Below, piece by piece: positions 34,165 through 62,134 of a stretch of DNA of 64,000 nt. The number at the start of each line of letters is the position of its first letter. The first letter of the stretch is position 1. Both the position numbers and the translations under genes were made by a program. Source of the stretch: Bacteroidia bacterium (lineage in GTDB: Bacteria; Bacteroidota; Bacteroidia; M30B66); NCBI GenBank assembly GCA_965279035.1, contig OZ257142.1:3424001-3488000 (forward strand), written 5' to 3'. The notes beneath the pieces are model-generated. The model made no database searches and was not told the DNA's origin. It saw nothing but the letters and a program-made list of their open reading frames with translations.

Positions 34165-34267
34165 TTTTCACAAAAGTAATAAAATTTTCAATATACACGT
34201 GCAAATATATCCAAATGAATACGTGTCGTTTGTTGGTGATTTCCGCTAACCTTTAGACTTGCAGTCA

Positions 34268-34457
34268 AAGATTTTAGCTGATAAATTTACCATAAATAAA
34301 TGTAGTTAACCGAAAGCAGGGCGACCTATGCGCTAACAAGGATAATAGGCCTATGGAACGATATAGTGCCCTACTTTCTGGTTATTTAAGCCTCAGATAG
34401 ATATTCGGGATTCAGGCCCATTATAAAGGTTTTGAGGTACAAATAACCATTGGTTAA
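34268..34457 (+). ncRNA. Predicted IS110 bridge RNA (copy 1; 5' end approximate)
   Basis: Two stem-bounded internal loops. LTG CGCTAAC 34331-34337; RTG GGAACG(AT) 34355-34362; LDG ATAGATAT 34397-34404; RDG TAAAGG(TT) 34424-34431. Confidence 0.85.
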
Positions 34458-34480
34458 TCCGTTTTGCTAATTATAAAATT

Positions 34481-35494
34481 ATGAATTCAAACCAGAACAA
34501 CCAAAAACATTTTGTAGGAACAGATGTTTCAAAAGAAACACTTGATGTAACGATCTTTTTCAACTCCTCAATGCATTTTCATCAGCAATTTTCAAATGAC
34601 AGCAAGGGCTTTAAGCAATTGCTGAAATGGCTAGAAACCTATCCTGAATTCAGTTTTGAAAATACTTTATTCTGCATGGAACATACAGGAATTTACACTC
34701 GTCAGTTTGTTGAATTCCTCCTTTCGAAAGAAGCAAAGGTATGGATGGAGTCGGCACTGCATTTAAAGCGTTCTATGGGCATGACAAGGGGCAAAAGTGA
34801 TAAGATCGATTCACTGCGAATTGCACGCTATGCAATGACTCATCAGGACCAAGCCAGGCTCGTAAATCTTTCCAATAAAACATTGTTGCTTATCAAAGAC
34901 CTTATGAGTGCAAGAGAGCGGAGTAAAAAGGCCTACCAGTCCATAAAAGTCTCCATTGATGAAATGCAAAGAGTCGATGCAGCAACAGCAAAAGAGCTCT
35001 TGAGGATTAATAAACCAGCCCTTTCTGGATTATTGAAAAGCAAGATGGCGTTGGAAAAACGGATGATGGAATTAATAGCGATGGATCCTGAACTGAACGA
35101 GCTATTTGAGCTGGTTACTTCTGTCAAAGGTGTGGGTAATGTATTGGCAACCGAACTGATTGTTTATACACATGCATTTAAAAGAATGGATGAAGCCAAA
35201 CAACTGGCCTGCTATTGCGGAGTCGCTCCTTTTTCTCATACTTCCGGCACGAGTGTGCATGGAAGAAATGGAACTTCAAACTTTGCTAACATGGGACTTA
35301 AATCAACTTTACACTTGGCTGCACTTTCTTCAATTCGTTACGTACCTGAGCTTAAAACATATTATCAGAGGAAAGTAGCTGAGGGAAAATCCAAAATGAG
35401 CGTAATTAATGCCGTGCGGAATAAACTGTTGCAACGTGTCTTAGCAGTGGTAAAAAGAGGAACGCCTTACCAAGAAAATTATCAAGTAAATTAA
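34481..35494 (+). CDS. IS110-family DEDD recombinase
   Basis: GTDVSK, CMEHTG, KSDKIDS (DEDD RuvC-like); C-terminal YCGVAP..SGTS. Confidence 0.95.
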   Translation: MNSNQNNQKHFVGTDVSKETLDVTIFFNSSMHFHQQFSNDSKGFKQLLKWLETYPEFSFENTLFCMEHTGIYTRQFVEFLLSKEAKVWMESALHLKRSMGMTRGKSDKIDSLRIARYAMTHQDQARLVNLSNKTLLLIKDLMSARERSKKAYQSIKVSIDEMQRVDAATAKELLRINKPALSGLLKSKMALEKRMMELIAMDPELNELFELVTSVKGVGNVLATELIVYTHAFKRMDEAKQLACYCGVAPFSHTSGTSVHGRNGTSNFANMGLKSTLHLAALSSIRYVPELKTYYQRKVAEGKSKMSVINAVRNKLLQRVLAVVKRGTPYQENYQVN

Positions 35495-35514
35495 TTTGGA
35501 AAACTCATAGATAT

Positions 35515-35637
35515 CGTTCCGCACACACCTGAAGAGCCAAATGAGATGAACGAAATGCTTTATATTAGACGAATATAACAAGAAAAACGAATGCCTCATA
35601 CTCCCGAAATGCTTGGCTTTGCTGGTGTGTGCTGTTA
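35515..35637 (-). repeat. attC-like site 2 (resident family, interrupted by IS110)
   Basis: Same repeat as site 1; its TAAC lies at 34247-34250. Confidence 0.9.
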
Positions 35638-35645
35638 GCTGTAGT

Positions 35646-36287
35646 TTATTTATTACTCCAGAATTCTTCAGTTAAATAAAAAACAGTGTCAATAAAATAA
35701 AGGACATTATTTCTAGTCAACACATTTTCATCATGCAAATCTTCGAGTATAATTCCTAAATTTTGATTAAAGTAATCGTTGTTTCTAGTATTTTGAAATC
35801 CATTTGAAGTCAAAAACTCTTTTAATTGATTTAAATCTGTATTACTTGTTATTGTAACATATGATTGTTGAACAACAGCATAAAGAATTTCATTCTCCTT
35901 GGTAAATCCAAGCAATTCATATGCAGTATCTTCAAAAAAAAAATTATGAATCAACAAATTATAAAAGTAATCTCTCCAACTGCTATAATAAATTCCATCA
36001 TTTAACTTTAAAACATGATCAGAGTTTTTGAGATACACTCTTTGCTCTGCTCCTTCACTTACATACTGAGTAAAATCAATATCAGATATCCAAAGCTTAT
36101 TTTCTGAAACAAAGATTTCTAATCTCTTTGCTTCTTGTTCTTTGAATTGCTTTGAGTTTTCAATTTTTGAGCCTGGTTGCGAGCCTTTGCTAAGGTAACT
36201 GGCGACTGATTGGATAGTTGTTCCAAACCTAACTTGGCTCTTTCCTGAAATGACATCATAAAGTTCTTGTTTAAGTTGGTCTTGCAT
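35646..36287 (-). CDS. Protein kinase-like protein (polyvalent-protein kinase type)
   Basis: EGAEQRVY, VLKLN, DLHDENVL, FIDT kinase-fold motifs. Confidence 0.65.
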   Translation of the reverse strand: MQDQLKQELYDVISGKSQVRFGTTIQSVASYLSKGSQPGSKIENSKQFKEQEAKRLEIFVSENKLWISDIDFTQYVSEGAEQRVYLKNSDHVLKLNDGIYYSSWRDYFYNLLIHNFFFEDTAYELLGFTKENEILYAVVQQSYVTITSNTDLNQLKEFLTSNGFQNTRNNDYFNQNLGIILEDLHDENVLTRNNVLYFIDTVFYLTEEFWSNK

Positions 36288-36356
36288 TAAAGCAAAGATA
36301 AGAAATGATTTTATAAGTCGGAATGCTTGTTTATCAGCGATTTACTAAATTACAGC

Positions 36357-36482
36357 TAACGTTTCGGGGGTTTGCGATGGCGGGGAGTTTTAGCACTAAA
36401 CTTCATTCGGAGAACTGAACTTCCACTAACCACAAATGTGTCTGCGAAGCACGGAACCCCCGCTATCGCAAACCCCATGTTA
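36357..36482 (-). repeat. attC-like site 3 (divergent family)
   Basis: TAAC..GGGGTTTGCGATGGCGGGG...CCCCGCTATCGCAAACCCC..GTTA. Confidence 0.9.
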
Positions 36483-36586
36483 GCGGATGCCCTTCTTCCC
36501 ATTCCACGAAGGTATGCACTTTATTTTGTCGCACAATTGTCTGATTAAATTTTTTGTCGTCAAAAGTTGTCAGCAAGTAACCACAC

Positions 36587-36620
36587 AAAAAATAAGCAGG
36601 GGTGGCGAAGCCACCCCTGC
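36587..36620 (-). terminator. Intrinsic terminator of the viperin unit
   Basis: 11-bp stem GCAGGGGTGGC/GCCACCCCTGC followed by TTATTTTTT on the minus strand. Confidence 0.8.
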
Positions 36621-36625
36621 CTTTA

Positions 36626-36784
36626 CTACTTGTCTTTTCCCTTTGGCGGCACAGGAGGCTGCTGTTTAGGGTCAAGTTGTTTGCCTCTGTTACCTTGATT
36701 TTTGTCATAGGTTTCGTTTGTGCCAGAGGTCCCTTTGTTCGGATTTTTTATGTCCGCTTCGTGATTTTTTTCTTTCTCACTCAT
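36626..36784 (-). CDS. Small 52-aa hydrophilic protein downstream of viperin
   Basis: Manual translation MSEKEKNHEADIKNPNKGTSGTNETYDKNQGNRGKQLDPKQQPPVPPKGKDK; ends just before the terminator. Confidence 0.6.
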   Translation of the reverse strand: MSEKEKNHEADIKNPNKGTSGTNETYDKNQGNRGKQLDPKQQPPVPPKGKDK

Positions 36785-36872
36785 TGTTTTTGGATTTAAC
36801 TGTGATGCTTCAATTTCTGCGTTTCTGCTTCCGCCCCTTAGTTTTAGTTGGACTTCGGTTTAACCAATATTT

Positions 36873-37739
36873 TTAGTTAACCGTTGTCCAGTTGTAGATG
36901 CCGCCTCTTGAAACAAACTTTGAAAAGTCGTAGCTCATTTGCTGAATAGCAAGTCTTGCCCCGATGTCTAAAATTGGTTTGCTGTAAATGTGTCCGCCTG
37001 TTGTGTTGTCGTAAAACCTGCCTGCTGGGTCAACCATAGCATAAGAACCAGTCATTTGATTGTTGTTCTCGGGAACTATGCTTGTAATGTCCAGAAGTCC
37101 TTTGTGGTTATCAATAAAAAATTGAAATTGCTCGTTTGTGATTTTGAATTTGTCAATGTTCAAATCGTTCTGTCCTTTCATTGGCAAAACTTGGAATAGT
37201 TTCCATCGTTTTGGTTTTGCATAACGGATAAACTCGCTCAAGTTTTCGTTGCAGTTCTTGCTACTTACAACTGTATTTATTTTTAGTCCATAACCGTGTT
37301 CTTTTATTCTGTCAACAAGCGAAGTGTAGTAGTCAATTTGTAAAGGTGTCTTGCCCGAAATTGCTCTGCCGGTTTCAATGTTTGTGTTAGCGTTTAAACT
37401 GTCAATGCTTACGGAAATCCAGTCAAGGTGCTGCTGATTAGCTTGCAAAAAACTGTCAGTAAGTTTACTGCCGTTGCTCACAATCATTGTTGTAAGTCCT
37501 GCTTGCTTGGCGGTTGTAATTAAATCGGGAAGCCAAGGGCAAAGAGTTGGTTCGCCTCCTGCGAAAGTGATTTTCTCAAAGCCAATTTCAGCAAGATGAA
37601 GGACTACTTCAATTGCTTGTTCTTTTGGTAAATGTCCTTTTGGTAAAATGCTTTGCTTAACATCTTGAAAGGTTGCGAAGCAAAACTTGCAACGCATGTT
37701 GCATGGCTCCCATAAATGAAAATTGACTGCTGGAATCAT
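36873..37739 (-). CDS. pVip: Prokaryotic viperin (radical SAM antiviral nucleotide dehydratase)
   Basis: VNFHLWEPCNMRCKFCFATF, KITFAGGEPTL, KINTVV, RWKLFQVL, SYAMVDPAGRF, RGGxYxW. Confidence 0.92.
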   Translation of the reverse strand: MIPAVNFHLWEPCNMRCKFCFATFQDVKQSILPKGHLPKEQAIEVVLHLAEIGFEKITFAGGEPTLCPWLPDLITTAKQAGLTTMIVSNGSKLTDSFLQANQQHLDWISVSIDSLNANTNIETGRAISGKTPLQIDYYTSLVDRIKEHGYGLKINTVVSSKNCNENLSEFIRYAKPKRWKLFQVLPMKGQNDLNIDKFKITNEQFQFFIDNHKGLLDITSIVPENNNQMTGSYAMVDPAGRFYDNTTGGHIYSKPILDIGARLAIQQMSYDFSKFVSRGGIYNWTTVN

Positions 37740-37821
37740 TTGTGTGTTTTTTAGTTTAACGACACAAATATTCAGCGACTTTTTAGGTCAGATTCTATTT
37801 GGAAAATAGAAACTTATTGAA

Positions 37822-37850
37822 AGTAATGAGTTGGCTTTTTTGAGTAATGA
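37822..37850 (-). promoter_or_regulatory. Candidate LytTR operator upstream of viperin
   Basis: Direct repeat AGTAATGA at 37822 and 37843 (21-bp period). Confidence 0.5.
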
Positions 37851-37856
37851 AATAGG

Positions 37857-38597
37857 TCAAGGCATCCGAAAATTCTCTGAGGTTTTTAAAAGTTTTGTTT
37901 CAATTTTTCCATTTTGGTTCATCACTTCAACTTCAATCTCACGACTTCCTTTCTTTCTTGGTTTAACATGCTTTTCGTTCACCACAACACCTCTGATAAT
38001 TTCCAAAAACTTTTGTTTGCTAAATCCTTTCTCGTGCATTTTAGCTATTGTAAAATCAATAAGTATTTCTGGTTTTCGGTCTATGAAGTAAATGATTTTG
38101 TTGTTTGATTCCGCACCATTTGCCTTGTCTGAACATAGATAAACTATAGTGTCAACCACTATTTTATTTTTTTTGCTCTCTGCAAAATCAAGGTTAATGT
38201 ATTTGGAAGTTATTTCTTCTCTCACTTCGTTGAGAAACTTTGTCGCCTTTTTAAGAAACTCCTTTTCCGTAAATGGTTTTGTAATGTGGTCAACAATTAA
38301 ATCAAATTCGCTTTCCAATTTTTCAATCTCTTTCAAATTCGCTGCGTTGTGTCCGCTAACAAACAATACTGGAAGTTTAAGTTTGTAAGCTACCTCTAAA
38401 CCATTCATGTTACTGCCACCGCCTAAATCAATGTCAAGAAGCAAAGCGTCAGCTTTGCTTGTTTTTTCATTGTTTAAAAAGTCGGTGGAGTTTGTTGCGA
38501 AAGCAACAACTTCAACTAACTCTGTCGCTTCCAAATTTTGTTTATGGTCTTTCAGTAGCGAAGGATTGTCTTCTAAAATTGCAACTTTAAGTTTCAT
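37857..38597 (-). CDS. LytTR-type response regulator
   Basis: Receiver domain VAILED, LLDIDL, ITKPF; degenerate LytTR C-terminus; start MKLKV overlaps the kinase stop (TAATG). Confidence 0.8.
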   Translation of the reverse strand: MKLKVAILEDNPSLLKDHKQNLEATELVEVVAFATNSTDFLNNEKTSKADALLLDIDLGGGSNMNGLEVAYKLKLPVLFVSGHNAANLKEIEKLESEFDLIVDHITKPFTEKEFLKKATKFLNEVREEITSKYINLDFAESKKNKIVVDTIVYLCSDKANGAESNNKIIYFIDRKPEILIDFTIAKMHEKGFSKQKFLEIIRGVVVNEKHVKPRKKGSREIEVEVMNQNGKIETKLLKTSENFRMP

Positions 38598-39310
38598 TAA
38601 AAGCGAATGATTAAAGTTGAAATATACTGTTGCTCGTTGCAACTATTTTTAAGGTCAAATTTTCCTGTCAGCAGAAGGTCTAATCGTTTTCTCATGTTGC
38701 TCAATCCAATTCCGCCTTTCGTTTCTCTTGGGTTTGGAATAATTCTGTTTACCACATTCAATTCAAAAGTTGTGTCCGAAAGTTTGAGTGTGATTTTCAA
38801 AAACTCTGGATGGTTTCTATCTCCGTGTTTGAAAGCGTTCTCAACGAAGTAAGCCGTTATCAGGTGAGGAACGCAAGCCGTTGTAAAAAATTTTGAGTTT
38901 GTATTCACTTGCGACTTGTCAATTTTTATGCTGTCAATTTGATAAACAAAATTTCCTTGAAGTGCTTTATACTTTTCAAGAAAGTTCAACTCCTCTTGAA
39001 TACTTACAAGATGTTTGTTGCCGTGATATAAAATGTAGTCAAGCGTTTCAGCAAGCGATTCAGAACCTTTGTAAAGATTTTTGGCTGCAACATTAAGCGT
39101 TGAAACCATGTTGCGTAGAGTGTGAGGTTGCAACTGAAATTTCAAATGCTCTGCCTCAAGTAAAGCGTTGTCGGCAATGAGTTTTGCGTTTTCCCTTGCA
39201 AGTTTGTCCCGCTGCTTTTTCTCTGCTTTCAGTTTGGAGTAAAGCCAAATACTGAGAACAATGAAAACTACAATTATGAAAATTAGTCCTTCGTTATCTT
39301 CCATTGTCAA
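38597..39310 (-). CDS. LytS-type histidine kinase with one TM and no obvious sensor domain
   Basis: LKFQLQPHTLRN, ENAFKHG, GGIGLSNMRKRL. Confidence 0.85.
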   Translation of the reverse strand: MTMEDNEGLIFIIVVFIVLSIWLYSKLKAEKKQRDKLARENAKLIADNALLEAEHLKFQLQPHTLRNMVSTLNVAAKNLYKGSESLAETLDYILYHGNKHLVSIQEELNFLEKYKALQGNFVYQIDSIKIDKSQVNTNSKFFTTACVPHLITAYFVENAFKHGDRNHPEFLKITLKLSDTTFELNVVNRIIPNPRETKGGIGLSNMRKRLDLLLTGKFDLKNSCNEQQYISTLIIRF

Positions 39311-39380
39311 GTTTACTAAAAGTCGTCATATTTTGCTGTCGGTTGATGGTTGCACGGTCGCTCATAGGGTTTCCGCTAAC

Positions 39381-40645
39381 CTTTAGACTTGCAGTCAAAG
39401 ATTTTAGCTGATAAATTTACCATAAATAAATGTAGTTAACCGAAAGCAGGGCGACCTATGCGCTAACAAGGATAATAGGCCTATGGAACGATATAGTGCC
39501 CTACTTTCTGGTTATTTAAGCCTCAGATAGATATTCGGGATTCAGGCCCATTATAAAGGTTTTGAGGTACAAATAACCATTGGTTAATCCGTTTTGCTAA
39601 TTATAAAATTATGAATTCAAACCAGAACAACCAAAAACATTTTGTAGGAACAGATGTTTCAAAAGAAACACTTGATGTAACGATCTTTTTCAACTCCTCA
39701 ATGCATTTTCATCAGCAATTTTCAAATGACAGCAAGGGCTTTAAGCAATTGCTGAAATGGCTAGAAACCTATCCTGAATTCAGTTTTGAAAATACTTTAT
39801 TCTGCATGGAACATACAGGAATTTACACTCGTCAGTTTGTTGAATTCCTCCTTTCGAAAGAAGCAAAGGTATGGATGGAGTCGGCACTGCATTTAAAGCG
39901 TTCTATGGGCATGACAAGGGGCAAAAGTGATAAGATCGATTCACTGCGAATTGCACGCTATGCAATGACTCATCAGGACCAAGCCAGGCTCGTAAATCTT
40001 TCCAATAAAACATTGTTGCTTATCAAAGACCTTATGAGTGCAAGAGAGCGGAGTAAAAAGGCCTACCAGTCCATAAAAGTCTCCATTGATGAAATGCAAA
40101 GAGTCGATGCAGCAACAGCAAAAGAGCTCTTGAGGATTAATAAACCAGCCCTTTCTGGATTATTGAAAAGCAAGATGGCGTTGGAAAAACGGATGATGGA
40201 ATTAATAGCGATGGATCCTGAACTGAACGAGCTATTTGAGCTGGTTACTTCTGTCAAAGGTGTGGGTAATGTATTGGCAACCGAACTGATTGTTTATACA
40301 CATGCATTTAAAAGAATGGATGAAGCCAAACAACTGGCCTGCTATTGCGGAGTCGCTCCTTTTTCTCATACTTCCGGCACGAGTGTGCATGGAAGAAATG
40401 GAACTTCAAACTTTGCTAACATGGGACTTAAATCAACTTTACACTTGGCTGCACTTTCTTCAATTCGTTACGTACCTGAGCTTAAAACATATTATCAGAG
40501 GAAAGTAGCTGAGGGAAAATCCAAAATGAGCGTAATTAATGCCGTGCGGAATAAACTGTTGCAACGTGTCTTAGCAGTGGTAAAAAGAGGAACGCCTTAC
40601 CAAGAAAATTATCAAGTAAATTAATTTGGAAAACTCATAGATATC
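39381..40645 (+). mobile_element. IS110 copy 2 in attC-like site 4 (bridge RNA ~39398-39587)
   Basis: Same ends and junctions as copy 1. Confidence 0.95.
39611..40624 (+). CDS. IS110 recombinase
   Basis: Identical translation to copy 1. Confidence 0.95.
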   Translation: MNSNQNNQKHFVGTDVSKETLDVTIFFNSSMHFHQQFSNDSKGFKQLLKWLETYPEFSFENTLFCMEHTGIYTRQFVEFLLSKEAKVWMESALHLKRSMGMTRGKSDKIDSLRIARYAMTHQDQARLVNLSNKTLLLIKDLMSARERSKKAYQSIKVSIDEMQRVDAATAKELLRINKPALSGLLKSKMALEKRMMELIAMDPELNELFELVTSVKGVGNVLATELIVYTHAFKRMDEAKQLACYCGVAPFSHTSGTSVHGRNGTSNFANMGLKSTLHLAALSSIRYVPELKTYYQRKVAEGKSKMSVINAVRNKLLQRVLAVVKRGTPYQENYQVN

Positions 40646-40767
40646 GTTCCGCACACACCTGAAGAGCCAAACGAGGTGAACGAAATGCTTTAGATTAGAC
40701 GAATATAACAAGAAAAACGGATGCTTCAAACTCCCGAAATGCTTGGCTTTGCTGGTGTGTGCTGTTA
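40645..40767 (-). repeat. attC-like site 4 (interrupted by IS110)
   Basis: Resident family repeat. Confidence 0.9.
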
Positions 40768-40929
40768 TGGGCTGGTTTTCTTTCTTTATAGACAGTAAAG
40801 GCAAGTTGTTCTGTCTTGTGAGCCTCAATTAATTCTGTAGTGTCCTTGTCAGGAAAAGCAACAATCAGATAATTTCCTCTTGCCAAAATCTAATTTCCCA
40901 TGCCAATTTGATCTTGGTGGGACTGTTGA

Positions 40930-41454: not shown

Positions 41455-41579
41455 TAACGGTCCGGCGATTTGCGAATGCGCGGAACAGTTTACCCAAATG
41501 TATCAAAACAAACGAAATGTTTCAATCAGAAAAATGACTTATAGAACGAAAATGCCCGCGTATCGCAGATTGCCTGTTA
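41455..41579 (-). repeat. attC-like site 5 (divergent)
   Basis: TAAC-GGTCC-GGCGATTTGCGA...TCGCAGATTGCC-T-GTTA. Confidence 0.88.
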
Positions 41580-41960
41580 TTTGATGCGCGCCAAGTCCGA
41601 TTCAGTTCTAGCAAAGTTTCCAAGCAAAAAAAGCGACTTGAATACACATTCTGAAATAAGGCCAAAAACCATTCTGCAAATATTCTGTGTTTGTCGCCAT
41701 CAATTCTCTAGTTGATTTCATCAATCCATTAATTTGATTTTATCAGCAGTTCATTCCAGGCATATGGCGACAAACTTTTCAAAAACCTCTCAAATGGTTT
41801 TTGCCTATCCCTCAAATGCCGAGCTTTTTTTATCAAAAACGATTAGACATTCGTTTATTACTTTATTGTTTCCTGATAGCCGAAACTTCCTTTCGCCTTT
41901 AATGAATTATCTGACCACAATGCGAATGGCGAGTTTGGAAAATTTCGCGTTTCAAATAAC
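41576..41960. other. Non-coding structured cassette, copy A
   Basis: Ends GTTATTTGA/TCAAATAAC; no self-contained ORF >=60 aa; nested inverted repeats. Confidence 0.75.
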
Positions 41961-42082
41961 GTTCCGCACACACCTGAAGAGCCAAACGACGTGAACGGAT
42001 AGCTTTAGATTAGACGAATATAACAAGAAAAACGAATGCCTCAAACTCCCGAAATGCTTGGCTTTGCTGGTGTGTGCTGTTA
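41957..42082 (-). repeat. attC-like site 6 (resident family, empty)
   Basis: Same repeat as site 1. Confidence 0.9.
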
Positions 42083-42663: not shown

Positions 42664-43928
42664 CTTTAGACTTGCAGTCAAAGATTTTAGCTGATAAATT
42701 TACCATAAATAAATGTAGTTAACCGAAAGCAGGGCGACCTATGCGCTAACAAGGATAATAGGCCTATGGAACGATATAGTGCCCTACTTTCTGGTTATTT
42801 AAGCCTCAGATAGATATTCGGGATTCAGGCCCATTATAAAGGTTTTGAGGTACAAATAACCATTGGTTAATCCGTTTTGCTAATTATAAAATTATGAATT
42901 CAAACCAGAACAACCAAAAACATTTTGTAGGAACAGATGTTTCAAAAGAAACACTTGATGTAACGATCTTTTTCAACTCCTCAATGCATTTTCATCAGCA
43001 ATTTTCAAATGACAGCAAGGGCTTTAAGCAATTGCTGAAATGGCTAGAAACCTATCCTGAATTCAGTTTTGAAAATACTTTATTCTGCATGGAACATACA
43101 GGAATTTACACTCGTCAGTTTGTTGAATTCCTCCTTTCGAAAGAAGCAAAGGTATGGATGGAGTCGGCACTGCATTTAAAGCGTTCTATGGGCATGACAA
43201 GGGGCAAAAGTGATAAGATCGATTCACTGCGAATTGCACGCTATGCAATGACTCATCAGGACCAAGCCAGGCTCGTAAATCTTTCCAATAAAACATTGTT
43301 GCTTATCAAAGACCTTATGAGTGCAAGAGAGCGGAGTAAAAAGGCCTACCAGTCCATAAAAGTCTCCATTGATGAAATGCAAAGAGTCGATGCAGCAACA
43401 GCAAAAGAGCTCTTGAGGATTAATAAACCAGCCCTTTCTGGATTATTGAAAAGCAAGATGGCGTTGGAAAAACGGATGATGGAATTAATAGCGATGGATC
43501 CTGAACTGAACGAGCTATTTGAGCTGGTTACTTCTGTCAAAGGTGTGGGTAATGTATTGGCAACCGAACTGATTGTTTATACACATGCATTTAAAAGAAT
43601 GGATGAAGCCAAACAACTGGCCTGCTATTGCGGAGTCGCTCCTTTTTCTCATACTTCCGGCACGAGTGTGCATGGAAGAAATGGAACTTCAAACTTTGCT
43701 AACATGGGACTTAAATCAACTTTACACTTGGCTGCACTTTCTTCAATTCGTTACGTACCTGAGCTTAAAACATATTATCAGAGGAAAGTAGCTGAGGGAA
43801 AATCCAAAATGAGCGTAATTAATGCCGTGCGGAATAAACTGTTGCAACGTGTCTTAGCAGTGGTAAAAAGAGGAACGCCTTACCAAGAAAATTATCAAGT
43901 AAATTAATTTGGAAAACTCATAGATATC
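42664..43928 (+). mobile_element. IS110 copy 3 in attC-like site 7 (bridge RNA ~42681-42870)
   Basis: Same ends and junctions as copy 1. Confidence 0.95.
42894..43907 (+). CDS. IS110 recombinase
   Basis: Identical translation to copy 1. Confidence 0.95.
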   Translation: MNSNQNNQKHFVGTDVSKETLDVTIFFNSSMHFHQQFSNDSKGFKQLLKWLETYPEFSFENTLFCMEHTGIYTRQFVEFLLSKEAKVWMESALHLKRSMGMTRGKSDKIDSLRIARYAMTHQDQARLVNLSNKTLLLIKDLMSARERSKKAYQSIKVSIDEMQRVDAATAKELLRINKPALSGLLKSKMALEKRMMELIAMDPELNELFELVTSVKGVGNVLATELIVYTHAFKRMDEAKQLACYCGVAPFSHTSGTSVHGRNGTSNFANMGLKSTLHLAALSSIRYVPELKTYYQRKVAEGKSKMSVINAVRNKLLQRVLAVVKRGTPYQENYQVN

Positions 43929-44050
43929 GTTCCGCACACACCTGAAGAGCCAAACGAGGTGAACGAAATGCTTTAGATTAGACGAATATAACAAGAAAAA
44001 CGAATGCCTCAAACTCCGGAAATGCTTGGCTTTGCTGGTGTGTGCTGTTA
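43928..44050 (-). repeat. attC-like site 7 (interrupted by IS110)
   Basis: Resident family repeat. Confidence 0.9.
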
Positions 44051-44089
44051 TAGGCTGCCATATTTTCAACCTAAATATCACAAGTTATT

Positions 44090-45304: not shown

Positions 45305-45430
45305 TAACGTTTTCGGGCTTGGCGAAGGTGGCGATTTTCACCACAAATGTTAATGCGGAGAACCAAACTTTGATTAACCACAAATGTGTCTACGGTGCAC
45401 TGAACCGCCACTTTTGCCAAACCCGTGTTA
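45305..45430 (-). repeat. attC-like site 8 (divergent)
   Basis: TAAC-GTTTT-CGGGCTTGGCGAAGGTGGCG...CGCCACTTTTGCCAAACCCG-T-GTTA. Confidence 0.9.
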
Positions 45431-46892: not shown

Positions 46893-47019
46893 TAACGCTC
46901 CGCGTGCAACTCGAGGTTTGGGAATTGGTGAACTGAATGCTTTAGATTAGACGAATATAGCAAGAAAATTGAAATGTTTTAACCAAGCAAAATGCCCAAA
47001 TCTTGAGTGCACGCTGTTA
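46893..47019 (-). repeat. attC-like site 9 (variant stem, resident-type loop)
   Basis: TAAC-GCTCC-GCGTGCAACTCGAGGTTTGGG...CCCAAATCTTGAGTGCACGC-T-GTTA. Confidence 0.9.
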
Positions 47020-47400
47020 TTTGATGCGCGCCAAGTCCGATTCAGTTCCAGCAAACTTTCCAAGCAAAAAAAGCGACTTGAATACACATTCTGAAATAAG
47101 GCCAAAAACCATTCATCAAATTATCAATGTTTGTCGCCATCAATTCTCAAGTTGATTTCATCAATCCATTAACTTGATTTCATCTACAGTTCATTCCAGG
47201 CATATGGCGACAAACTTTTCAAAAACCTCTCAAATGGTTTTTGCCTTTCCCTCAAATGCCGAGCTTTTTTTATCAAAAACGATTAGACATTCGTTTATTA
47301 CTTTATTCTTTCCTGATAGCCGAAACTTCCTTTCGCCTTTAATGAATTATCTGACAATAATGCGAATGGCGTGTTTGGAAAATTTCGCGTTTCAAATAAC
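47016..47400. other. Non-coding structured cassette, copy B
   Basis: Near-identical to 41576-41960. Confidence 0.75.
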
Positions 47401-47522
47401 GTTCCGCACACACCTGAAGAGCCAAACGAGGTAAACGAAATGCTTTAGATTAGACGAATATAACAAGAAAAACGGATGCCTCAAACTCCCGAAATGCTTG
47501 GCTTTGCTGGTGTGTGCTGTTA
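47397..47522 (-). repeat. attC-like site 10 (resident family, empty)
   Basis: Same repeat as site 1. Confidence 0.9.
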
Positions 47523-50435: not shown

Positions 50436-50557
50436 GTTTCGCACACACCTGAAGAGCCAAATGAGTTGAACGAAATGCTTTAGATTAGACGAATATAACA
50501 AGAAAAACGAATGCCTCAAACTCCCGAAATGCTTGGCTTTGCTGGTGTGTGCTGTTA
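50435..50557 (-). repeat. attC-like site 11 (interrupted by IS110)
   Basis: Resident family repeat. Confidence 0.9.
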
Positions 50558-50572
50558 TAGGCTGGCATTCTA

Positions 50573-51292: not shown

Positions 51293-51417
51293 TAACGCTC
51301 CGCAGCTATCGGCTGAACCGGAGAACGGAACGTGATGCTTTAGATTATACGAATGTAATATAGAATTACCAATGTATCAACTTACCCAAATGCCGGTTTT
51401 GCCGATAGCTGCTGTTA
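51293..51417 (-). repeat. attC-like site 12 (variant stem)
   Basis: TAAC-GCTCC-GCAGCTATCGGC..ACCGG...CCGGT..GCCGATAGCTGC-T-GTTA. Confidence 0.9.
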
Positions 51418-54317: not shown

Positions 54318-55582
54318 CTTTAGACTTGCAGTCAAAGATTTTAGCTGATAAATTTACCATAAATAAATGTAGTTAACCGAAAGCAGGGCGACCTATGCGC
54401 TAACAAGGATAATAGGCCTATGGAACGATATAGTGCCCTACTTTCTGGTTATTTAAGCCTCAGATAGATATTCGGGATTCAGGCCCATTATAAAGGTTTT
54501 GAGGTACAAATAACCATTGGTTAATCCGTTTTGCTAATTATAAAATTATGAATTCAAACCAGAACAACCAAAAACATTTTGTAGGAACAGATGTTTCAAA
54601 AGAAACACTTGATGTAACGATCTTTTTCAACTCCTCAATGCATTTTCATCAGCAATTTTCAAATGACAGCAAGGGCTTTAAGCAATTGCTGAAATGGCTA
54701 GAAACCTATCCTGAATTCAGTTTTGAAAATACTTTATTCTGCATGGAACATACAGGAATTTACACTCGTCAGTTTGTTGAATTCCTCCTTTCGAAAGAAG
54801 CAAAGGTATGGATGGAGTCGGCACTGCATTTAAAGCGTTCTATGGGCATGACAAGGGGCAAAAGTGATAAGATCGATTCACTGCGAATTGCACGCTATGC
54901 AATGACTCATCAGGACCAAGCCAGGCTCGTAAATCTTTCCAATAAAACATTGTTGCTTATCAAAGACCTTATGAGTGCAAGAGAGCGGAGTAAAAAGGCC
55001 TACCAGTCCATAAAAGTCTCCATTGATGAAATGCAAAGAGTCGATGCAGCAACAGCAAAAGAGCTCTTGAGGATTAATAAACCAGCCCTTTCTGGATTAT
55101 TGAAAAGCAAGATGGCGTTGGAAAAACGGATGATGGAATTAATAGCGATGGATCCTGAACTGAACGAGCTATTTGAGCTGGTTACTTCTGTCAAAGGTGT
55201 GGGTAATGTATTGGCAACCGAACTGATTGTTTATACACATGCATTTAAAAGAATGGATGAAGCCAAACAACTGGCCTGCTATTGCGGAGTCGCTCCTTTT
55301 TCTCATACTTCCGGCACGAGTGTGCATGGAAGAAATGGAACTTCAAACTTTGCTAACATGGGACTTAAATCAACTTTACACTTGGCTGCACTTTCTTCAA
55401 TTCGTTACGTACCTGAGCTTAAAACATATTATCAGAGGAAAGTAGCTGAGGGAAAATCCAAAATGAGCGTAATTAATGCCGTGCGGAATAAACTGTTGCA
55501 ACGTGTCTTAGCAGTGGTAAAAAGAGGAACGCCTTACCAAGAAAATTATCAAGTAAATTAATTTGGAAAACTCATAGATATC
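54318..55582 (+). mobile_element. IS110 copy 5 in attC-like site 13 (bridge RNA ~54335-54524)
   Basis: Same ends; target GTATAAC|GTTCCG. Confidence 0.95.
54548..55561 (+). CDS. IS110 recombinase
   Basis: Identical translation to copy 1. Confidence 0.95.
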   Translation: MNSNQNNQKHFVGTDVSKETLDVTIFFNSSMHFHQQFSNDSKGFKQLLKWLETYPEFSFENTLFCMEHTGIYTRQFVEFLLSKEAKVWMESALHLKRSMGMTRGKSDKIDSLRIARYAMTHQDQARLVNLSNKTLLLIKDLMSARERSKKAYQSIKVSIDEMQRVDAATAKELLRINKPALSGLLKSKMALEKRMMELIAMDPELNELFELVTSVKGVGNVLATELIVYTHAFKRMDEAKQLACYCGVAPFSHTSGTSVHGRNGTSNFANMGLKSTLHLAALSSIRYVPELKTYYQRKVAEGKSKMSVINAVRNKLLQRVLAVVKRGTPYQENYQVN

Positions 55583-55704
55583 GTTCCGCACACACCTGAA
55601 GAGCCAAATGAGATGAACGGAATGCTTTAGATTAGACGAATATAACAAGAAAAACGAATGCCTCAAACTCCCGAAATGCTTGGCTTTGCTGGTGTGTGCT
55701 GTTA
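55582..55704 (-). repeat. attC-like site 13 (interrupted by IS110)
   Basis: Resident family repeat. Confidence 0.9.
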
Positions 55705-55717
55705 TGCCATGTGCAAA

Positions 55718-55885: not shown

Positions 55886-55887
55886 GA

Positions 55888-56418: not shown

Positions 56419-56486
56419 AAGTGAAAGTTAAGCATTACAAATTGTACTGCCAAATCTCATCTTGTCGATATCATTTGCATTGGGCA

Positions 56487-56612
56487 TAACGTTTTGCAGC
56501 TACCCGAAGGGCGGGACTTTTACCACAAAACTTGATTTGAAAAGCTAAAGTTTGATTAACCACAAAACTGTCATTGGAACACGAAACCCCGCTTTTTGGG
56601 TAGGTGCTGTTA
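56487..56612 (-). repeat. attC-like site 14 (divergent)
   Basis: TAAC-GTTTT-GCAGCTACCCGAAGGGCGGG...CCCGCTTTTTGGGTAGGTGC-T-GTTA. Confidence 0.9.
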
Positions 56613-56752: not shown

Positions 56753-59700
56753 CTATTGTCCTTCAATTATTTTCTGTTCTTCTGGTGTAATGTCGTAAAG
56801 CTTATAAACTAATTGGTCAATTTTCCTTTCAAGGTCGGTAGTTGAAGTTCCTTTTTTGCTTATTATTTTTCTACCAAATCTATAAATGGTTGTTGTTCTG
56901 TTGGGCTAATTTTTTTAACAGGAATTTCTGTCAGTGGTGTATAATACAACTCTAAACTTTCTCCTTTTCTTTTGCCTTTATTGTAAAGCCAAAAGAAGTA
57001 AAGTTTTGAATTTAACAATGCAAGAATATATTTGAGACTAAAGTCTTTTTTTGCATTGGTTATATAGTAAACATCTGCACTAGAATACCATATACTATTG
57101 TTGTAACCAAAAACATTCGATTTAGTCCTTTGAGGGCAAACAATTTTTTCACCTTCAAAAACTGATTTTGTTCTTGCTGCAAAAATAACCCACCATTTAC
57201 CAAGTTTTACTGCCGCTTGCATTTCTCCTCTTTCTTGGCTTCTGTTTTTTATTACAGCCTCAAACTTTTCAAAATGTTTTTTAATTGTTGGATAATTTCC
57301 TATTTAAATATCCCTTGTTGCATATATTACTTGATACTTTGATTCATCAGAAGTCCAATATTTGTGAATGTCAGAGTTCTTAAACCAAGGTCTAATTAAT
57401 TCTAATTCTTGTTTTGAAAATTTTTTATTATTTACTTCTTCATTTGTAAGAACATAAACACCTTGATTGATATTTTCAACTTGTGTTAGTTCATTTTCAA
57501 TATGCTTATTTGAAATTCTATCCACGCCACTTAAAATTCCTTGACTAATGTCACAAATTTCAATTAACGGAGTTCCTTGATCAATTATTTTATTGAAAAT
57601 TGAATTATCTTTAGTAGAATTTTCTTTATTTCCTAAGCCCTGTAAGCGGATATAATTGTTTGTCGTTTCATATAGTTCAGTTTGTGGTGCTAAATAAATT
57701 TTTGAATTTTCGTTCTGTGCTGAGATAACTTTATCAAACAGTTCTTGATTACAGTCGCCAGTTTCAGATGTTACAAGATTATGTGCTAGTGAAGTAGCAT
57801 TTATTCCTTTGGTTAAAAATGTTATTAAGTTATGTTGACCTTTAGCAGATTCAAATATTCTTAGCTCATTCAAATTAACTAAACCGTTTATAGTTGCACT
57901 ATTTTTAAAGTCGGTTCGTAAATTTTCACCTCCGTCACTTGTTAAATAGTAGTTTGTTGTGATGTAAGCCAGTTTCCCATTTTCTTTAAGCAATTGCAGT
58001 CCCAAATGAAAAAAGAAATAAAATATATCCATTTTCCTTTGATAAAAATTTGCAAGGTTGCCTTGGCGAATAATTCTGAATACTTCTTTATGACCTTTTT
58101 CTCCGATGTATGGTGGATTTCCAATTATAGCGTCAAAGCCTTCAAATTCGCCATTATTATTAAGAACTTCTGGAAATTCAAATCGCCATTCAAATGCACT
58201 TTTATAGATTACGTTATTTTTTATTTCCTCAATTTCTTTGGAAAGAATATTGATGTCAGCTTCTAATTTTATTTGATTATCCTTTTGTATCTTTTTCTGT
58301 TTACTATCAAGTTCAAATAATTTTCCTTGATTTAGCAAATTAAAAAGGTCTCCGCTAAGTTTTCTGAGTTTAATTTGTTTGGGGTCATTGTTGCCAATTT
58401 CAGTTCGAAAATCAGATTTAATACTGTCAATGATTTTTTGCAAACCTCTTTTAACATCACGACTTTTTTCGTTTTTGTAATCGTTTACAAATCCTCTGTA
58501 TGCTTTTACATCGTATTTGATGCTTTTCAAAGCTTTGCTTAAATCTGAATCAAACGTAAACCTACTTAACAAACTATTTCCACATTTAATATTGATGTCA
58601 ATATTTGGAAGTGTTTCAAGTTCAGCATAATTCGTTTCTGCTTTGTAATAAGCATTTTTTAAAAGCTCTATCCACAAACGTAAACGGCAAATTTTTACGG
58701 AGTTTGGATTGATATCAACGCCAAACAAGCAGTTTTCGATTATTGTTTGCTTTTCGTGGAAAAGTGTTTTTTGAATCCTATTGCTTTCTTTATTTAATGG
58801 ATTGTATGCAAAAATGTTGCTGTTTTCATCAGTAATAATAAGTTCATCATTTATTATTTCAATTTCATAATCTCTAAGAGTTTTCCCTTTCTCGTCCATT
58901 AGTATACCGAGTTCACTTTTTACCGCTATTATTTCGTTAAGTGCAGAAACTAAAAAGTGACCAGAGCCGACTGCTGGGTCGCAAATTTTAATTGAATTAA
59001 TTATTTCGTTTGCTTCTTTTTTGTCTTCAATTTTATTGTAAAGTTCATCGAATTGCTTAATGTTCCATTTTTTATTTACATTGAATTTCTCAACAACAGC
59101 AAGGCGAATTGATTGTTTACACATATACATCGTGATAAATGCTGGCGTGAAAATCGAACCGTCTTTGTAACCATTAATTTTTTCAAATACTTTACCAAGA
59201 ACCGAGGCATTAATAATTGTTTTATTGTCTTCTTGAACATCTTCAGTTCCTTCACTTGCAAAGTCGTAAGCATCTAAAAACTGAAAAAGATAATCCAAAG
59301 TGGGCAGCGAAGCTGCCTTCTTTTTTGTATCTTTTAATATTGTTGTTCCAATTATTTCAAGTTGTCCGTTGTTATCAAGTGAATTTATTTTAATCGTTAA
59401 GTCTTCTAATTCGCTTATCTCAAAAAGTGAACTATTTAAGTATGGAACTTTGCTATACTTAATTTTAATTGCATCAGTTCTTTCTGTTAGATTTATAGCT
59501 AAAACTTTATGAAACAGTTTAAACAATTCATCAAAATCATTTATCATTGATGAATTTAGGAAGCGATACTCCTTATTACCTTGATGATAAGTTATGAGTT
59601 GACCTTCTAATAATTTTAGAAACAGGATTCTGTTTATCCAAGTAATACAAAGCTCAAGCGAAATATTATATATCCTTTCTTCTTTATTTTCTCCATATAA

Positions 59701-60621
59701 AGATTGGTCGGGAATTCTATGTAAAACATCTTCTGTATTTAATGCTTCTATAGTTGCTTCAAAAAGTGAAGCTAGGTTCCGGTTTTCTTTTTTACGCCTA
59801 ATTATATTCCTACCACCTTCCTTAACTTCTTCAAGTCCGATTATGTGAAGTAGTTCTCTATAGAACTTTTCGTTAAGAGAGTTACTATCGTTTGGTGTTG
59901 CTACTTTTAATAAGTGTGTTGGTGAAAGAATTTTGAATAATGCAATTAATTCTTTGTCGTCCTCTTTATTGTTGTTTCTTAAAACCTTATCATATTCTCT
60001 GATGTCGAAGTAAACACAAGGTATTTCAACTTCAATTTTGGCAACTATTTTGGCTATTTCTTCATAAAAAAACGGGTTATCTTTTTTGTCGTTGAGTTTG
60101 GTTTCGTATAGTTTTTTTATTTGTGTATTTCGGTAAATATGTTTGTCGAAATAATTTGCGTCAATAATAAACCATTGGTTTACATTGGTCATTACCAACT
60201 GTTTTAGTTGGTTGTTTCCTGCTTGGTTTCTCTCGTCTAAGTAATAAAGTATAAGTTCGTGAAGTGCTTTTTTGTTAGGGTTGTCAGCCGTTACCATTTC
60301 ACCAATATTGGTAGGCCGTTTGGCTTCTATAATTACTCCAACCTCGCTGTCAGTTGTCTTGCCGAGATGAATTACAAGGTCTTTTTTGTCTTTGGTGTTG
60401 ATTGCGTTGGTGTCACGATAGTATGTGTCCCGCAGAAAGTCACGTAAGTCGTTTTTTAAATGTTCTTCACTTTCGTCTTTAGGTCGTTTTTCTATAACGC
60501 TGATTTTGTCGAGTAAAGCAATGAGGTTTGTTTTAAAAACGTCAATTTCGCTTCTCAAAGGTTTTTGCTTTAAGAAGGCTTTTAGTGCTTTTTTCGGTGT
60601 TTGCGTTATTAGTTTCATCAA
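56753..60621 (-). pseudogene. Type IIG (Eco57I-like) fused restriction-modification enzyme with an in-frame stop and a frameshift
   Basis: IIEAK, ICDPAVGSGHFL, IIGNPPY; in-frame TAA at 57304-57306; frameshift near 56866 before IDQLVYKLYDITPEE tail. Confidence 0.85.
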
Positions 60622-60869
60622 ATTTTCTATGTCAATTATTAAGCTCGCTAAGTTAAGTTTTAAAACCGTTTTTCAGTCCAAAGTTGTCGGCAAATTGTCA
60701 ACCTGCTGAATGTCTTGGTGCGGTTGGGCAAAATTAAATGTGCTGCAATTTGGGTCGGCTTGTGCGGTTGCATTGCAGCTCTTTTAATTTTGCGAAGCGT
60801 TGGCATTTTGTCGTCTGTTTTAATGTTAGTTTGTTGTCTGTTGTGTCGTCCTTTACGCTTGCACCTAAC

Positions 60870-62134
60870 CTTTAGACTTGCAGTCAAAGATTTTAGCTGA
60901 TAAATTTACCATAAATAAATGTAGTTAACCGAAAGCAGGGCGACCTATGCGCTAACAAGGATAATAGGCCTATGGAACGATATAGTGCCCTACTTTCTGG
61001 TTATTTAAGCCTCAGATAGATATTCGGGATTCAGGCCCATTATAAAGGTTTTGAGGTACAAATAACCATTGGTTAATCCGTTTTGCTAATTATAAAATTA
61101 TGAATTCAAACCAGAACAACCAAAAACATTTTGTAGGAACAGATGTTTCAAAAGAAACACTTGATGTAACGATCTTTTTCAACTCCTCAATGCATTTTCA
61201 TCAGCAATTTTCAAATGACAGCAAGGGCTTTAAGCAATTGCTGAAATGGCTAGAAACCTATCCTGAATTCAGTTTTGAAAATACTTTATTCTGCATGGAA
61301 CATACAGGAATTTACACTCGTCAGTTTGTTGAATTCCTCCTTTCGAAAGAAGCAAAGGTATGGATGGAGTCGGCACTGCATTTAAAGCGTTCTATGGGCA
61401 TGACAAGGGGCAAAAGTGATAAGATCGATTCACTGCGAATTGCACGCTATGCAATGACTCATCAGGACCAAGCCAGGCTCGTAAATCTTTCCAATAAAAC
61501 ATTGTTGCTTATCAAAGACCTTATGAGTGCAAGAGAGCGGAGTAAAAAGGCCTACCAGTCCATAAAAGTCTCCATTGATGAAATGCAAAGAGTCGATGCA
61601 GCAACAGCAAAAGAGCTCTTGAGGATTAATAAACCAGCCCTTTCTGGATTATTGAAAAGCAAGATGGCGTTGGAAAAACGGATGATGGAATTAATAGCGA
61701 TGGATCCTGAACTGAACGAGCTATTTGAGCTGGTTACTTCTGTCAAAGGTGTGGGTAATGTATTGGCAACCGAACTGATTGTTTATACACATGCATTTAA
61801 AAGAATGGATGAAGCCAAACAACTGGCCTGCTATTGCGGAGTCGCTCCTTTTTCTCATACTTCCGGCACGAGTGTGCATGGAAGAAATGGAACTTCAAAC
61901 TTTGCTAACATGGGACTTAAATCAACTTTACACTTGGCTGCACTTTCTTCAATTCGTTACGTACCTGAGCTTAAAACATATTATCAGAGGAAAGTAGCTG
62001 AGGGAAAATCCAAAATGAGCGTAATTAATGCCGTGCGGAATAAACTGTTGCAACGTGTCTTAGCAGTGGTAAAAAGAGGAACGCCTTACCAAGAAAATTA
62101 TCAAGTAAATTAATTTGGAAAACTCATAGATATC
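60870..62134 (+). mobile_element. IS110 copy 6 in attC-like site 15 (bridge RNA ~60887-61076)
   Basis: Same ends; target ACCTAAC|GTTCCG. Confidence 0.95.
61100..62113 (+). CDS. IS110 recombinase
   Basis: Identical translation to copy 1. Confidence 0.95.
   Translation: MNSNQNNQKHFVGTDVSKETLDVTIFFNSSMHFHQQFSNDSKGFKQLLKWLETYPEFSFENTLFCMEHTGIYTRQFVEFLLSKEAKVWMESALHLKRSMGMTRGKSDKIDSLRIARYAMTHQDQARLVNLSNKTLLLIKDLMSARERSKKAYQSIKVSIDEMQRVDAATAKELLRINKPALSGLLKSKMALEKRMMELIAMDPELNELFELVTSVKGVGNVLATELIVYTHAFKRMDEAKQLACYCGVAPFSHTSGTSVHGRNGTSNFANMGLKSTLHLAALSSIRYVPELKTYYQRKVAEGKSKMSVINAVRNKLLQRVLAVVKRGTPYQENYQVN

Follow-up and report, generated by a model that had tools for sequence, protein, structure and literature searches.

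The stretch of DNA examined here (the window) comprises 64,000 nt of the genome of a Bacteroidia bacterium, positions 3,424,001 to 3,488,000 of contig OZ257142.1 (assembly GCA_965279035.1), and holds an array of gene cassettes bounded by attC-like hairpins, together with six copies of an insertion sequence (IS) of the IS110 group. The copies appear as six direct repeats, starting at 34247, 39377, 42660, 49167, 54314 and 60866, which are identical over 1272 nt, the first difference falling at offset 1272. Comparison with unoccupied sites divides this repeat into a common TAAC, an element of 1265 nt running from CTTTAG to GATATC, and a common GTT. All six elements are 100% identical and lie on the + strand, antisense to the cassette genes, and each contains one open reading frame (ORF) of 337 aa on the + strand, the transposase gene (tnp). 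Every copy sits between ..TAAC and a GTTCC-type spacer, at one end of an attC-like hairpin of ~124 nt. The junction can be read as TAA-C-GTT, with a 1-nt ambiguity at the C, and is compatible with no duplication beyond that C; on the cargo strand the insertion changes AACGTTA into AACGATA. An earlier reading of this DNA (the initial annotation) had reported six identical proteins, one orientation opposite to the cargo, one insertion point (TAA-C-GTT) and the conversion of GTTA into GATA; the repeat comparison confirms the first three and the junctions the last. The copies and their parts are as follows:

34251-35515, + strand: IS copy 1, with tnp at 34481-35494 and the match to the bridge-RNA model at 34309-34444
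39381-40645, + strand: IS copy 2, with tnp at 39611-40624 and the bridge RNA at 39439-39574
42664-43928, + strand: IS copy 3, with tnp at 42894-43907 and the bridge RNA at 42722-42857
49171-50435, + strand: IS copy 4, with tnp at 49401-50414 and the bridge RNA at 49229-49364; flanks GGCTAAC/GTTTC
54318-55582, + strand: IS copy 5, with tnp at 54548-55561 and the bridge RNA at 54376-54511; flanks GTATAAC/GTTCC
60870-62134, + strand: IS copy 6, with tnp at 61100-62113 and the bridge RNA at 60928-61063; flanks ACCTAAC/GTTCC, the site being a diverged attC of the resident family described below

The transposase carries the Pfam domains DEDD_Tnp_IS110 (PF01548, E 7.3e-19) and Transposase_20 (PF02371, E 1.6e-19), scores 157 bits against the NCBIfam model NF033542 ('IS110 family RNA-guided transposase', cut-off 140), and has the IS621 (E 2.7e-26) and ISCro4 (E 8.2e-26) transposases as its best relatives of solved structure, all of which bears out the initial assignment to the IS110 family. 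The non-coding ends measure 230 nt on the left and 21 nt on the right, and there are no terminal inverted repeats at the tips. Only two 7-mers are common to the two ends in inverted sense, 24-62 nt from the tips, and long subterminal inverted repeats are absent. According to parts of PMC11208160, a long left end with a short right end is the pattern of the IS110 group, unlike that of IS1111. The IS1111 architecture, in which the guide RNA follows tnp and subterminal inverted repeats measure 7-17 bp, was not found in the element, the RNA model matching its left end only. By its domains, its end layout and its bridge RNA, the element belongs to the IS110 group. The right end also contains TTTG (35495-35498) 17 nt from the tip and the left end TAGACTTG (34254-34261) 3 nt from the tip; in a circle these would stand 19-20 nt apart, resembling a putative junction promoter of the Bacteroidota type, and both are kept in close relatives.

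Four sequencing runs of one study contain the stretch and may be the assembly's own data; two of them, X1 and X2, were used for contig depth. The word depth of the IS contig, a contig measure that is not equal to copy number, was 2245.7 in X1 against 170-240 for the unique flanks and 7166.9 in X2 against 548-762, an excess of ~9-13 fold, and the genome probably holds about ten copies. The high-depth contig of X1 (34247-35528) takes in TAAC at its left and GTTCCGCACACAC at its right before ending, the de Bruijn outcome that would be expected if all copies had those flanks in common. A contig of 808 nt bridges the left junction of copy 1 in both X1 and X2. Across the IS of copy 1 no contig spans in the four runs examined, and since contigs drop rare variants this is silent on empty alleles. 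Contig joints from 33429, 33486 or 33490 to ~34245, and from 35648 back to 34239, have sides of 30-37 nt within repeated boxes and are not interpretable. A lake-water metagenome holds a 98.4%-identical IS with a different left flank, ..GCCCT before TAAC. Copies elsewhere in unrelated sequence, an outcome that the initial annotation had set against its own proposal, were not seen, as far as contigs go.

The right flank of each copy is a near-identical repeat of ~125 nt and the copies are 100% identical, features which could also arise if the copies had spread by homologous recombination or gene conversion between near-identical hairpins, or if they were an assembly artefact (a collapsed and expanded repeat). 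The left flanks, however, are unique cassette sequence with only 4-8 nt in common, so that conversion would find no homology there. An artefact sits poorly with the independent contig that bridges the left junction of copy 1 in two runs and with the ~tenfold depth of the IS, although these runs may be the assembly's own data. Either origin is very improbable.

Bridge RNA and target guides

Two stem-loops form when the left end of the element is folded (z -2.65). A covariance model made from eight close sequences (the window and seven close relatives) matches once in each IS copy and nowhere else in the window, and a further 67 times in the loci of relatives, where the matches lie upstream of the transposase gene (73 matches in total). 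In the 73-hit alignment paired cells make up 87.3%, against 60.7% in shuffled alignments, and compensatory changes occur in 28 of 28 pairs. The covariation score, from an alignment fitted to the model, is 0.681 against 0.209; it was reached by none of 500 shuffles, and structures slid by 1-3 columns scored at most 0.172. A MAFFT alignment of the target loop was left out of the pair counts on account of a one-column shift between clades. Given the effect size and the slid controls, a conserved two-loop RNA is the only reasonable reading, while its expression and its binding by the transposase are predictions. Rfam gave zero matches in 28000-64000 at gathering thresholds. A promoter-like box, TAAATTTA (~34282-34289), stands ~20 nt ahead of the start of the bridge-RNA model, and the motif TAnnTTT(G/A) is present there in 10 of 10 close relatives aligned.

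Four guide segments can be assigned in the two loops, given here for copy 1:

34330-34337, + strand: left target guide (LTG), GCGCTAAC, equal to the left flank at 7 of 8 positions
34355-34360, + strand: right target guide (RTG), GGAACG, followed by ATAT at 34361-34364
34397-34405, + strand: left donor guide, ATAGATATT
34424-34431, + strand: right donor guide, TAAAGG(TT)

In the target loop the 5' side, GCGCUAAC, agrees with the left flank, CCGCTAAC, at 7 of 8 positions, the junction C included, and the 3' side, GGAACGAUAU, is the exact reverse complement of the right junction ATATC/GTTCC; on the DNA, GGAACGATAT (34355-34364) is the reverse complement of the right junction ATATCGTTCC. The second loop holds AUAGAUAU, which equals the right tip of the element, and UAAAGGUU, the reverse complement of the left junction AAC/CTTTA; ATAGATAT and TAAAGGTT match the element's own ends and its left junction. 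The guide for CGCTAAC that the initial annotation had postulated is thus present in the left end, accompanied by a second guide, GGAACG, for GTTCC.

The fit between guides and targets extends to relatives of the element. A search with the single protein gave no close relatives; an alignment-based scan with one genome per species returned 80 loci, all of them in Bacteroidota, the phylum to which the CHU_C and Por_Secre_tail domains within the window also point. The left flank ends in AAC, mostly as (Y)TAAC, in 50 of the 51 loci with at least 50% identity and a located left tip CTTTAG, and the left guide reads (Y)CGCUAAC throughout the relatives. Right guides vary. In the 41 loci where both could be read, the right guide agrees with the 5 nt past the insertion point at 179 of 205 positions, against a mean of 99 and a maximum of 130 in 10,000 shuffles. 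Agreement is perfect in 22 of these 41 loci, which hold 19 distinct right guides; examples of guide and flank are CAAACG-GTTTG, AAAACG-GTTTT, AGACCG-GGTCT, UAGACG-GTCTA and GGGCCG-GGCCC. Tolerated mismatches fall for the most part on right-flank positions 4 and 5, position 2 being seldom affected. A metagenome transposase 98% identical to that of the window has a guide one base off (GAAACG); the hairpin that it occupies, at GTTTT, is a different and shorter one.

The right flanks of the relatives are likewise hairpins ending in ..TGTTA. Strict closure of AAC on GTT in the minimum free energy (MFE) structure was found for 20 of 36 reconstructed empty sites and for 68 of 227 control AAC sites of the same loci, and closure at -10 kcal/mol or below for 16 of 36 and 44 of 227, an approximately twofold enrichment. 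This test is conservative, its controls being drawn from the same arrays. The attC profile of the window gave one match only in the relatives' loci (L005), because the hairpin families differ between hosts. A left guide fixed on (Y)TAAC with a right guide tuned to the spacer of the host is therefore a well-supported targeting mechanism, as judged from these sequence comparisons.

The hairpin array and its occupied sites

Combining a hidden Markov model (HMM) of the repeat that follows the IS, a hairpin scan and a second HMM (nhmmer), we located 16 attC-like sites between 33360 and 63181. Read on the + strand, each consists of (Y)TAAC, a 5-nt spacer (GTTCC or a variant), a stem of 9-20 bp, a loop, the complementary stem, one base and GTTA. 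The sites measure 123-125 nt, and their stems vary from site to site with complementarity kept; nine of the 16 form one near-identical 'resident' family. In the folds one side has a bulge of 5 nt and the opposite side 1 nt, and extrahelical bases are not obvious. As in integrons, imperfect hairpins with inverted AAC/GTT boxes stand behind each cassette in a single orientation. The ends of a cassette are mutual inverted repeats (for example GTTAGCGGATGTCACC ... GGTGATTTCCGCTAAC between sites 1 and 2), a property common to integron cassettes. The sites are listed below; for occupied ones the coordinates give the body of the site.

33360-33483, - strand: site 1, empty, resident family, TTATAAC/GTTCC; last site, at the distal array end
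35516-35647, - strand: site 2, occupied, resident family; R'-type box CGCTAAC at 34244-34250, left of the IS
36358-36481, - strand: site 3, empty, AGCTAAC/GTTTC; right-flank variant the same as that of occupied site 11
40646-40778, - strand: site 4, occupied, resident family; left flank CGCTAAC
41456-41580, - strand: site 5, empty, other stem family, CCATAAC/GGTCC
41958-42081, - strand: site 6, empty, resident family, AAATAAC/GTTCC
43929-44060, - strand: site 7, occupied, resident family; left flank CGCTAAC
45306-45429, - strand: site 8, empty, CTATAAC/GTTTT
46894-47018, - strand: site 9, empty, CGCTAAC/GCTCC; left half perfect, right half mismatched at position 2
47398-47521, - strand: site 10, empty, resident family, AAATAAC/GTTCC
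50436-50568, - strand: site 11, occupied, resident family, GGCTAAC/GTTTC
51294-51416, - strand: site 12, empty, CTATAAC/GCTCC
55583-55714, - strand: site 13, occupied, resident family, GTATAAC/GTTCC
56488-56611, - strand: site 14, empty, GCATAAC/GTTTT
62135-62267, - strand: site 15, occupied, diverged resident family, ACCTAAC/GTTCC
63059-63181, - strand: site 16, empty, other stem family, TGCTAAC/GTTCC(G)

All six copies lie in the resident family, as initially described, and the flanks listed at that time for empty and occupied sites were reproduced exactly. A scan of the window for IS remnants, cassette X (see below) included, found none, the six copies being the only matches to the element, and a plasmid collection held no match to the IS.

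Occupancy amounts to six of nine sites in the resident family against none of the seven others (hypergeometric p = 84/8008 = 0.0105, calculated by hand). The 12 nt that the guides would read, CGCTAA-C-GTTCC, are matched at 12/12 positions by occupied sites 2, 4 and 7, at 10/12 by sites 11 and 15 and at 9/12 by site 13. Empty resident sites 1, 6 and 10 match at 9/12, the mismatches being the three left-flank positions farthest from the junction; among the other empty sites, 16 and 9 match at 11/12 and site 3 at 10/12. Considering the left guide only, the resident family scores 7, 7, 7, 6, 5 and 4 of 7 at its occupied sites and 4, 4 and 4 at its empty ones, and the chance that all three empty sites fall among the four lowest values is 4/84 = 0.048 (by hand). 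The proposal that empty resident sites are poor guide matches (4/7) holds relative to most of the occupied ones and fails for one occupied site with an equal 4/7. Guide match alone does not account for occupancy, and with so few events chance, local hopping and a preference for hairpin context cannot be separated. Site 16, named in the initial annotation as the next target, does prove the best remaining one, its 11/12 being the top value among the unoccupied sites ranked. We would rank site 16 first, followed by site 3, then sites 1, 6 and 10, and then site 9, on the basis of the positions at which the relatives tolerate mismatches.

Cassette boundaries and the predicted effect of insertion

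Whether an insertion lies at the boundary between one cassette and the next depends on the polarity of the array. In one relative (L090; G003:C78, 853-5190) the 3' end of the gene for a 382-aa tyrosine recombinase is closely followed by three hairpins of this asymmetric kind, and the genes between the hairpins are co-directional with the recombinase gene. The cassette nearest the recombinase ends in ..GCTATAAC, followed by hairpin-less sequence, and has a hairpin on its far side only; the hairpin-less junction beside the recombinase looks like an attI-type junction. The L090 protein was searched in 301 genomes of the phylum, ~26 of which had orthologues at E <= 1e-100, and 20 loci were fetched (L125-L144). 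In at least 14 of the resulting 21 loci (L090 included), hairpins of 120-126 nt with the layout AAC-5 nt-stem...stem-1 nt-GTT lie directly 3' of the recombinase gene on the opposite strand, and several of the 21 hold three to twelve of them; the recombinases measure ~340-400 aa. Two further candidates for a recombinase beside an array were set aside, L091 (G005:C98) as its context looks like a different mobile region and L082 as too short to tell.

The L090 recombinase scores 199 bits against TIGR02249 (cut-off 265), leaving profile positions 179-237 unmatched. With 223.5 against a cut-off of 220 it passes NF040815 (XerA / integron integrase), and XerA structures are nearer to it than IntI4 is. 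The IntI-specific additional domain was not found in this array-adjacent protein. The recombinases and hairpin arrays of Bacteroidota may constitute an integron-like system with a non-canonical integrase.

By the rule seen in the relatives, the recombinase of the window would be expected beyond the 64 kb, on the - strand, with cassettes running from high to low coordinates. With this polarity the TAAC/GTTCC box would be the 3' (R'-type) end of the site and hence the boundary of one cassette and the next, and by comparison with the relatives an insertion at the attC/next-cassette boundary is supported. In canonical integrons the cassette boundary is the G/TT exchange point; by analogy the IS would lie at that point or one base away, given the 1-nt ambiguity at C. 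The 'crossover point' of the initial annotation therefore stands as a hairpin/cassette boundary, with the polarity taken from relatives only, and stands less well as a crossover: the exact exchange point is an analogy, and the duplication of cassette X has no simple fit with this polarity.

Cassette X, of 377 nt and with no - strand ORF of at least 70 aa, occurs twice (41581-41957 and 47019-47397, 95% identical), in a pattern that is not predicted by simple duplication under the assumed polarity. It keeps a resident hairpin on its high-coordinate side with differing hairpins on its low-coordinate side, as it would if the polarity were reversed, the + strand being the top strand and the IS lying at the 5' end of attC, with the R'' box on one side of it and the spacer on the other, as in IS1111-attC elements. 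The 5-nt versus 1-nt spacer, the only asymmetry of the hairpins, would also fit this arrangement if it were read like extrahelical bases. Against it, the cassette ORFs, apart from one toxin-antitoxin pair on the + strand, lie on the - strand, and their stops fall at the high-coordinate box or close to it; the relatives' recombinase is always on the side predicted by the opposite polarity, with arrays directly 3' of it; the gene-nearest cassette of L090 has a hairpin on its far side only; and the low-coordinate end of the array is without a recombinase, abutting an IS3-type transposase fragment and ordinary genes. A reversed polarity is therefore unlikely. A resemblance to the end of cassette X is seen in the final ~20 nt before site 1 on its left (33340-33359).

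We put a probability of about 0.8 on the reading that a recent or active IS110-group IS, guided by its bridge RNA to the hairpin-cassette boundary, has undergone a burst within the array and split the sites it entered. The left guide GCGCUAAC would read the conserved (Y)TAAC and the right guide GGAACG the C together with the 5-nt spacer GTTCC. Because (Y)TAAC stands at both ends of the hairpin and the guide-read spacer at one end only, one end and one orientation would be chosen, the two guides together setting the position and the direction antisense to the cassettes. A recent burst would then have multiplied the element within the array and, as the copies are identical, the element may be active or have been so recently. 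The simplest reading is a recent selfish burst.

Several points weigh against this interpretation. What speaks for activity is a single feature, the identity of the copies: empty alleles, circle junctions and transcripts were not seen, in contigs that could not have revealed rare forms and among listed runs that included no RNA. Sites 16 and 9 (both 11/12) and 3 (10/12) are empty though site 13 (9/12) is occupied, and at some twenty further positions of the window the 12-mer is matched with three or fewer mismatches, all of them empty. The depths are those of contigs rather than counts of copies, and the covariation alignment, being fitted to the model, favours the structure. No recombinase gene is present within the window, and the relatives' recombinase is without the signature insert of integron integrases, which makes the canonical G/TT crossover an analogy. 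Both copies of cassette X have a resident-family hairpin upstream and different hairpins downstream (sites 5 and 9).

In its physical sense the 'plug' of the initial annotation is real. The flank, said to be moved by ~1.27 kb, is displaced by a measured 1265 nt, and the sequence adjacent to the spacer becomes ..GATATC, turning the conserved AAC into ATC. With the R'-type box removed by that distance from the rest of the hairpin, the complete folded recombination substrate could no longer form, and it is plausible that a split site no longer recombines. Of the 15 intervals that separate neighbouring sites, 12 adjoin a split site by a hand count. Mobility would remain possible for larger segments bounded by intact sites, and these would carry the IS along.

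The hairpins may in addition contribute to expression. On the cargo strand the loops carry TAnnTTCG at the same aligned position in 12 of the 16 sites, with variable middle bases (TATA, TACA, TACT, TAGA); sites 3, 5, 8 and 14 have a different loop, and elsewhere the box persists despite differences between the stems (for example 33415-33440, - strand). The hairpin loop contains TATATTCG, and resident-family sites have TTTG 19 nt ahead of the loop box. The flavobacterial sigma-A -7 box is given as TAnnTTTG in the relevant part of PMC9723704, and it is plausible from this resemblance that the hairpin loop carries a promoter of the Bacteroidota sigma-A type. Transcription from it, if it is active, would cross the boundary into the following cassette and, at occupied sites, enter the right end of the IS, antisense to tnp.

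From here a 'lock' is a reasonable inference, whereas a reversible 'switch' is speculation; polar effects on expression and reversibility would both have to be deduced from the arrangement. A regulated, reversible lock would mean that insertion freezes the boundary and silences the downstream cassette, and that scarless excision, restoring TAACGTTCC, brings back both upon a signal. IS110-family elements do excise scarlessly through a circle, according to parts of PMC11208160, insertion leaves at most a 1-nt ambiguity, most cassette intervals (the 12 of 15) touch a split site, and a conserved -7-like box in the hairpin loop points towards the IS. However, no signal, regulator or population heterogeneity was observed and the loop promoter is putative, while the identity of the copies, and the recurrence of the habit throughout a clade found in many genomes, fit a selfish element on a repeated, harmless target. 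We thus consider regulation of this kind improbable. Little probability likewise attaches to the wider picture as a whole, in which a Bacteroidota-wide bridge-RNA IS110 lineage, with fixed and re-tuned guides, lives on arrays of a Xer-like, non-IntI recombinase and acts here as a reversible plug that freezes boundaries and cuts off loop promoters. Compared with these, the recent burst of a guided, site-splitting element remains our preferred reading; by splitting most of the boundaries along 30 kb, such a burst should restrict the shuffling of cassettes, and it may alter expression.

The ORFs of the array lie mostly on the - strand, the exception being a HigB/HTH pair on the + strand (62248-63016). 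Cargo includes a PIN/DUF6364 pair, a polyvalent-protein kinase, a radical SAM protein with a two-component pair, methyltransferases, type IX secretion substrates, an MmeI/Eco57I-type restriction-modification protein and the HigB/HTH pair. Two cassettes are thus of the toxin-antitoxin type, PIN with DUF6364 (33482-34164, - strand) and HigB with HTH (62248-63016, + strand, opposite to the other cassettes). One interval (56863-60621, - strand) holds the MmeI/Eco57I-type protein, of 1105 aa, beside a separate ORF of 119 aa with a TaqI_C specificity domain. Contigs from wastewater, sludge and lake metagenomes are 90-98% identical to single cassettes (the kinase, and the radical SAM protein with two-component genes) and to site 3; this homology (window 35626-39297) stops at the boxes, from which it follows that individual cassettes circulate beyond this strain. 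Just past the last hairpin, at the distal array end, is an IS3-type integrase-core (rve) ORF of 207 aa (32467-33090, + strand). A weak match to the attC HMM at 30706-30763 (+ strand; E 0.48 and 1.9), between an acyltransferase and a hydrolase gene and outside the recognised array, could be chance or an old site.

Relation to known systems

IS elements specialised on attC sites are already established in the form of the IS1111-attC group (ISPa21, ISPst6, ISKpn4 and ISPa25). Tetu and Holmes, in an abstract of 2008, reportedly described several IS1111-attC copies in one chromosomal array with a boom-and-bust history. Parts of PMC11187229 attribute to these elements DEDD transposases and element-encoded seekRNAs that match the target, at a fixed position in attC, and according to parts of PMC3001079 they lie antisense to the cassettes and close to the 5' end of attC, as group IIC-attC introns do. 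The element of the present study resembles them in its DEDD transposase of the IS110/IS1111 superfamily, in its RNA guidance, in its fixed position within the site and in lying antisense to the cassettes (six of six copies). It differs in having its guide RNA upstream rather than downstream of tnp, in the subterminal inverted repeats, which were not found here, and in its insertion at the 3' (R') boundary, theirs being near the 5' end in the account of PMC3001079. The hosts also differ, being Bacteroidota here and Pseudomonas or enterobacterial class 1 integrons there.

IS492 of Pseudoalteromonas atlantica, an IS110-family element, is said to excise precisely and so to restore the interrupted function, and would be a precedent for a 'switch'; it is, however, a single insertion in a gene, in contrast to a burst in recombination sites. 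The core of IS621 is a dinucleotide, and the core here can be one base, C. With IS621 and ISCro4 the element has in common a long left end and a two-loop RNA in which each loop has a left and a right guide overlapping a short core, as laid out in parts of PMC11208160. Its target, in contrast, is the end of an attC-type hairpin, the same parts reporting IS110 elements in REP-type sequences. Group IIC-attC introns are similarly mobile, attC-specialised and antisense to cassette transcription (PMC3001079, in part), but they are retroelements with another mechanism and with an outward promoter able to drive downstream cassettes, a feature not seen in the present element. Neither an IS110-group element specialised on attC nor any such element in Bacteroidota was found in the literature consulted, although the supplementary tables of PMC11208160 and PMC11187229 may list cases.

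Seen beside the IS1111-attC group, the element would represent a second, independent specialisation of RNA-guided IS110/IS1111 recombinases on integron-type sites, with the guide RNA and the insertion each at the opposite end, of element and site respectively, and in another phylum. A fixed left guide with a co-evolving right guide would amount to a natural experiment in the re-programming of bridge RNAs, and the 19 distinct natural right guides with their targets offer ready material for studying how far bridge recombinases tolerate mismatches. In its biology the plug is what the Pseudomonas precedent would lead one to expect; the new and useful part is the pairing, across the phylum, of a fixed guide with a tunable one.

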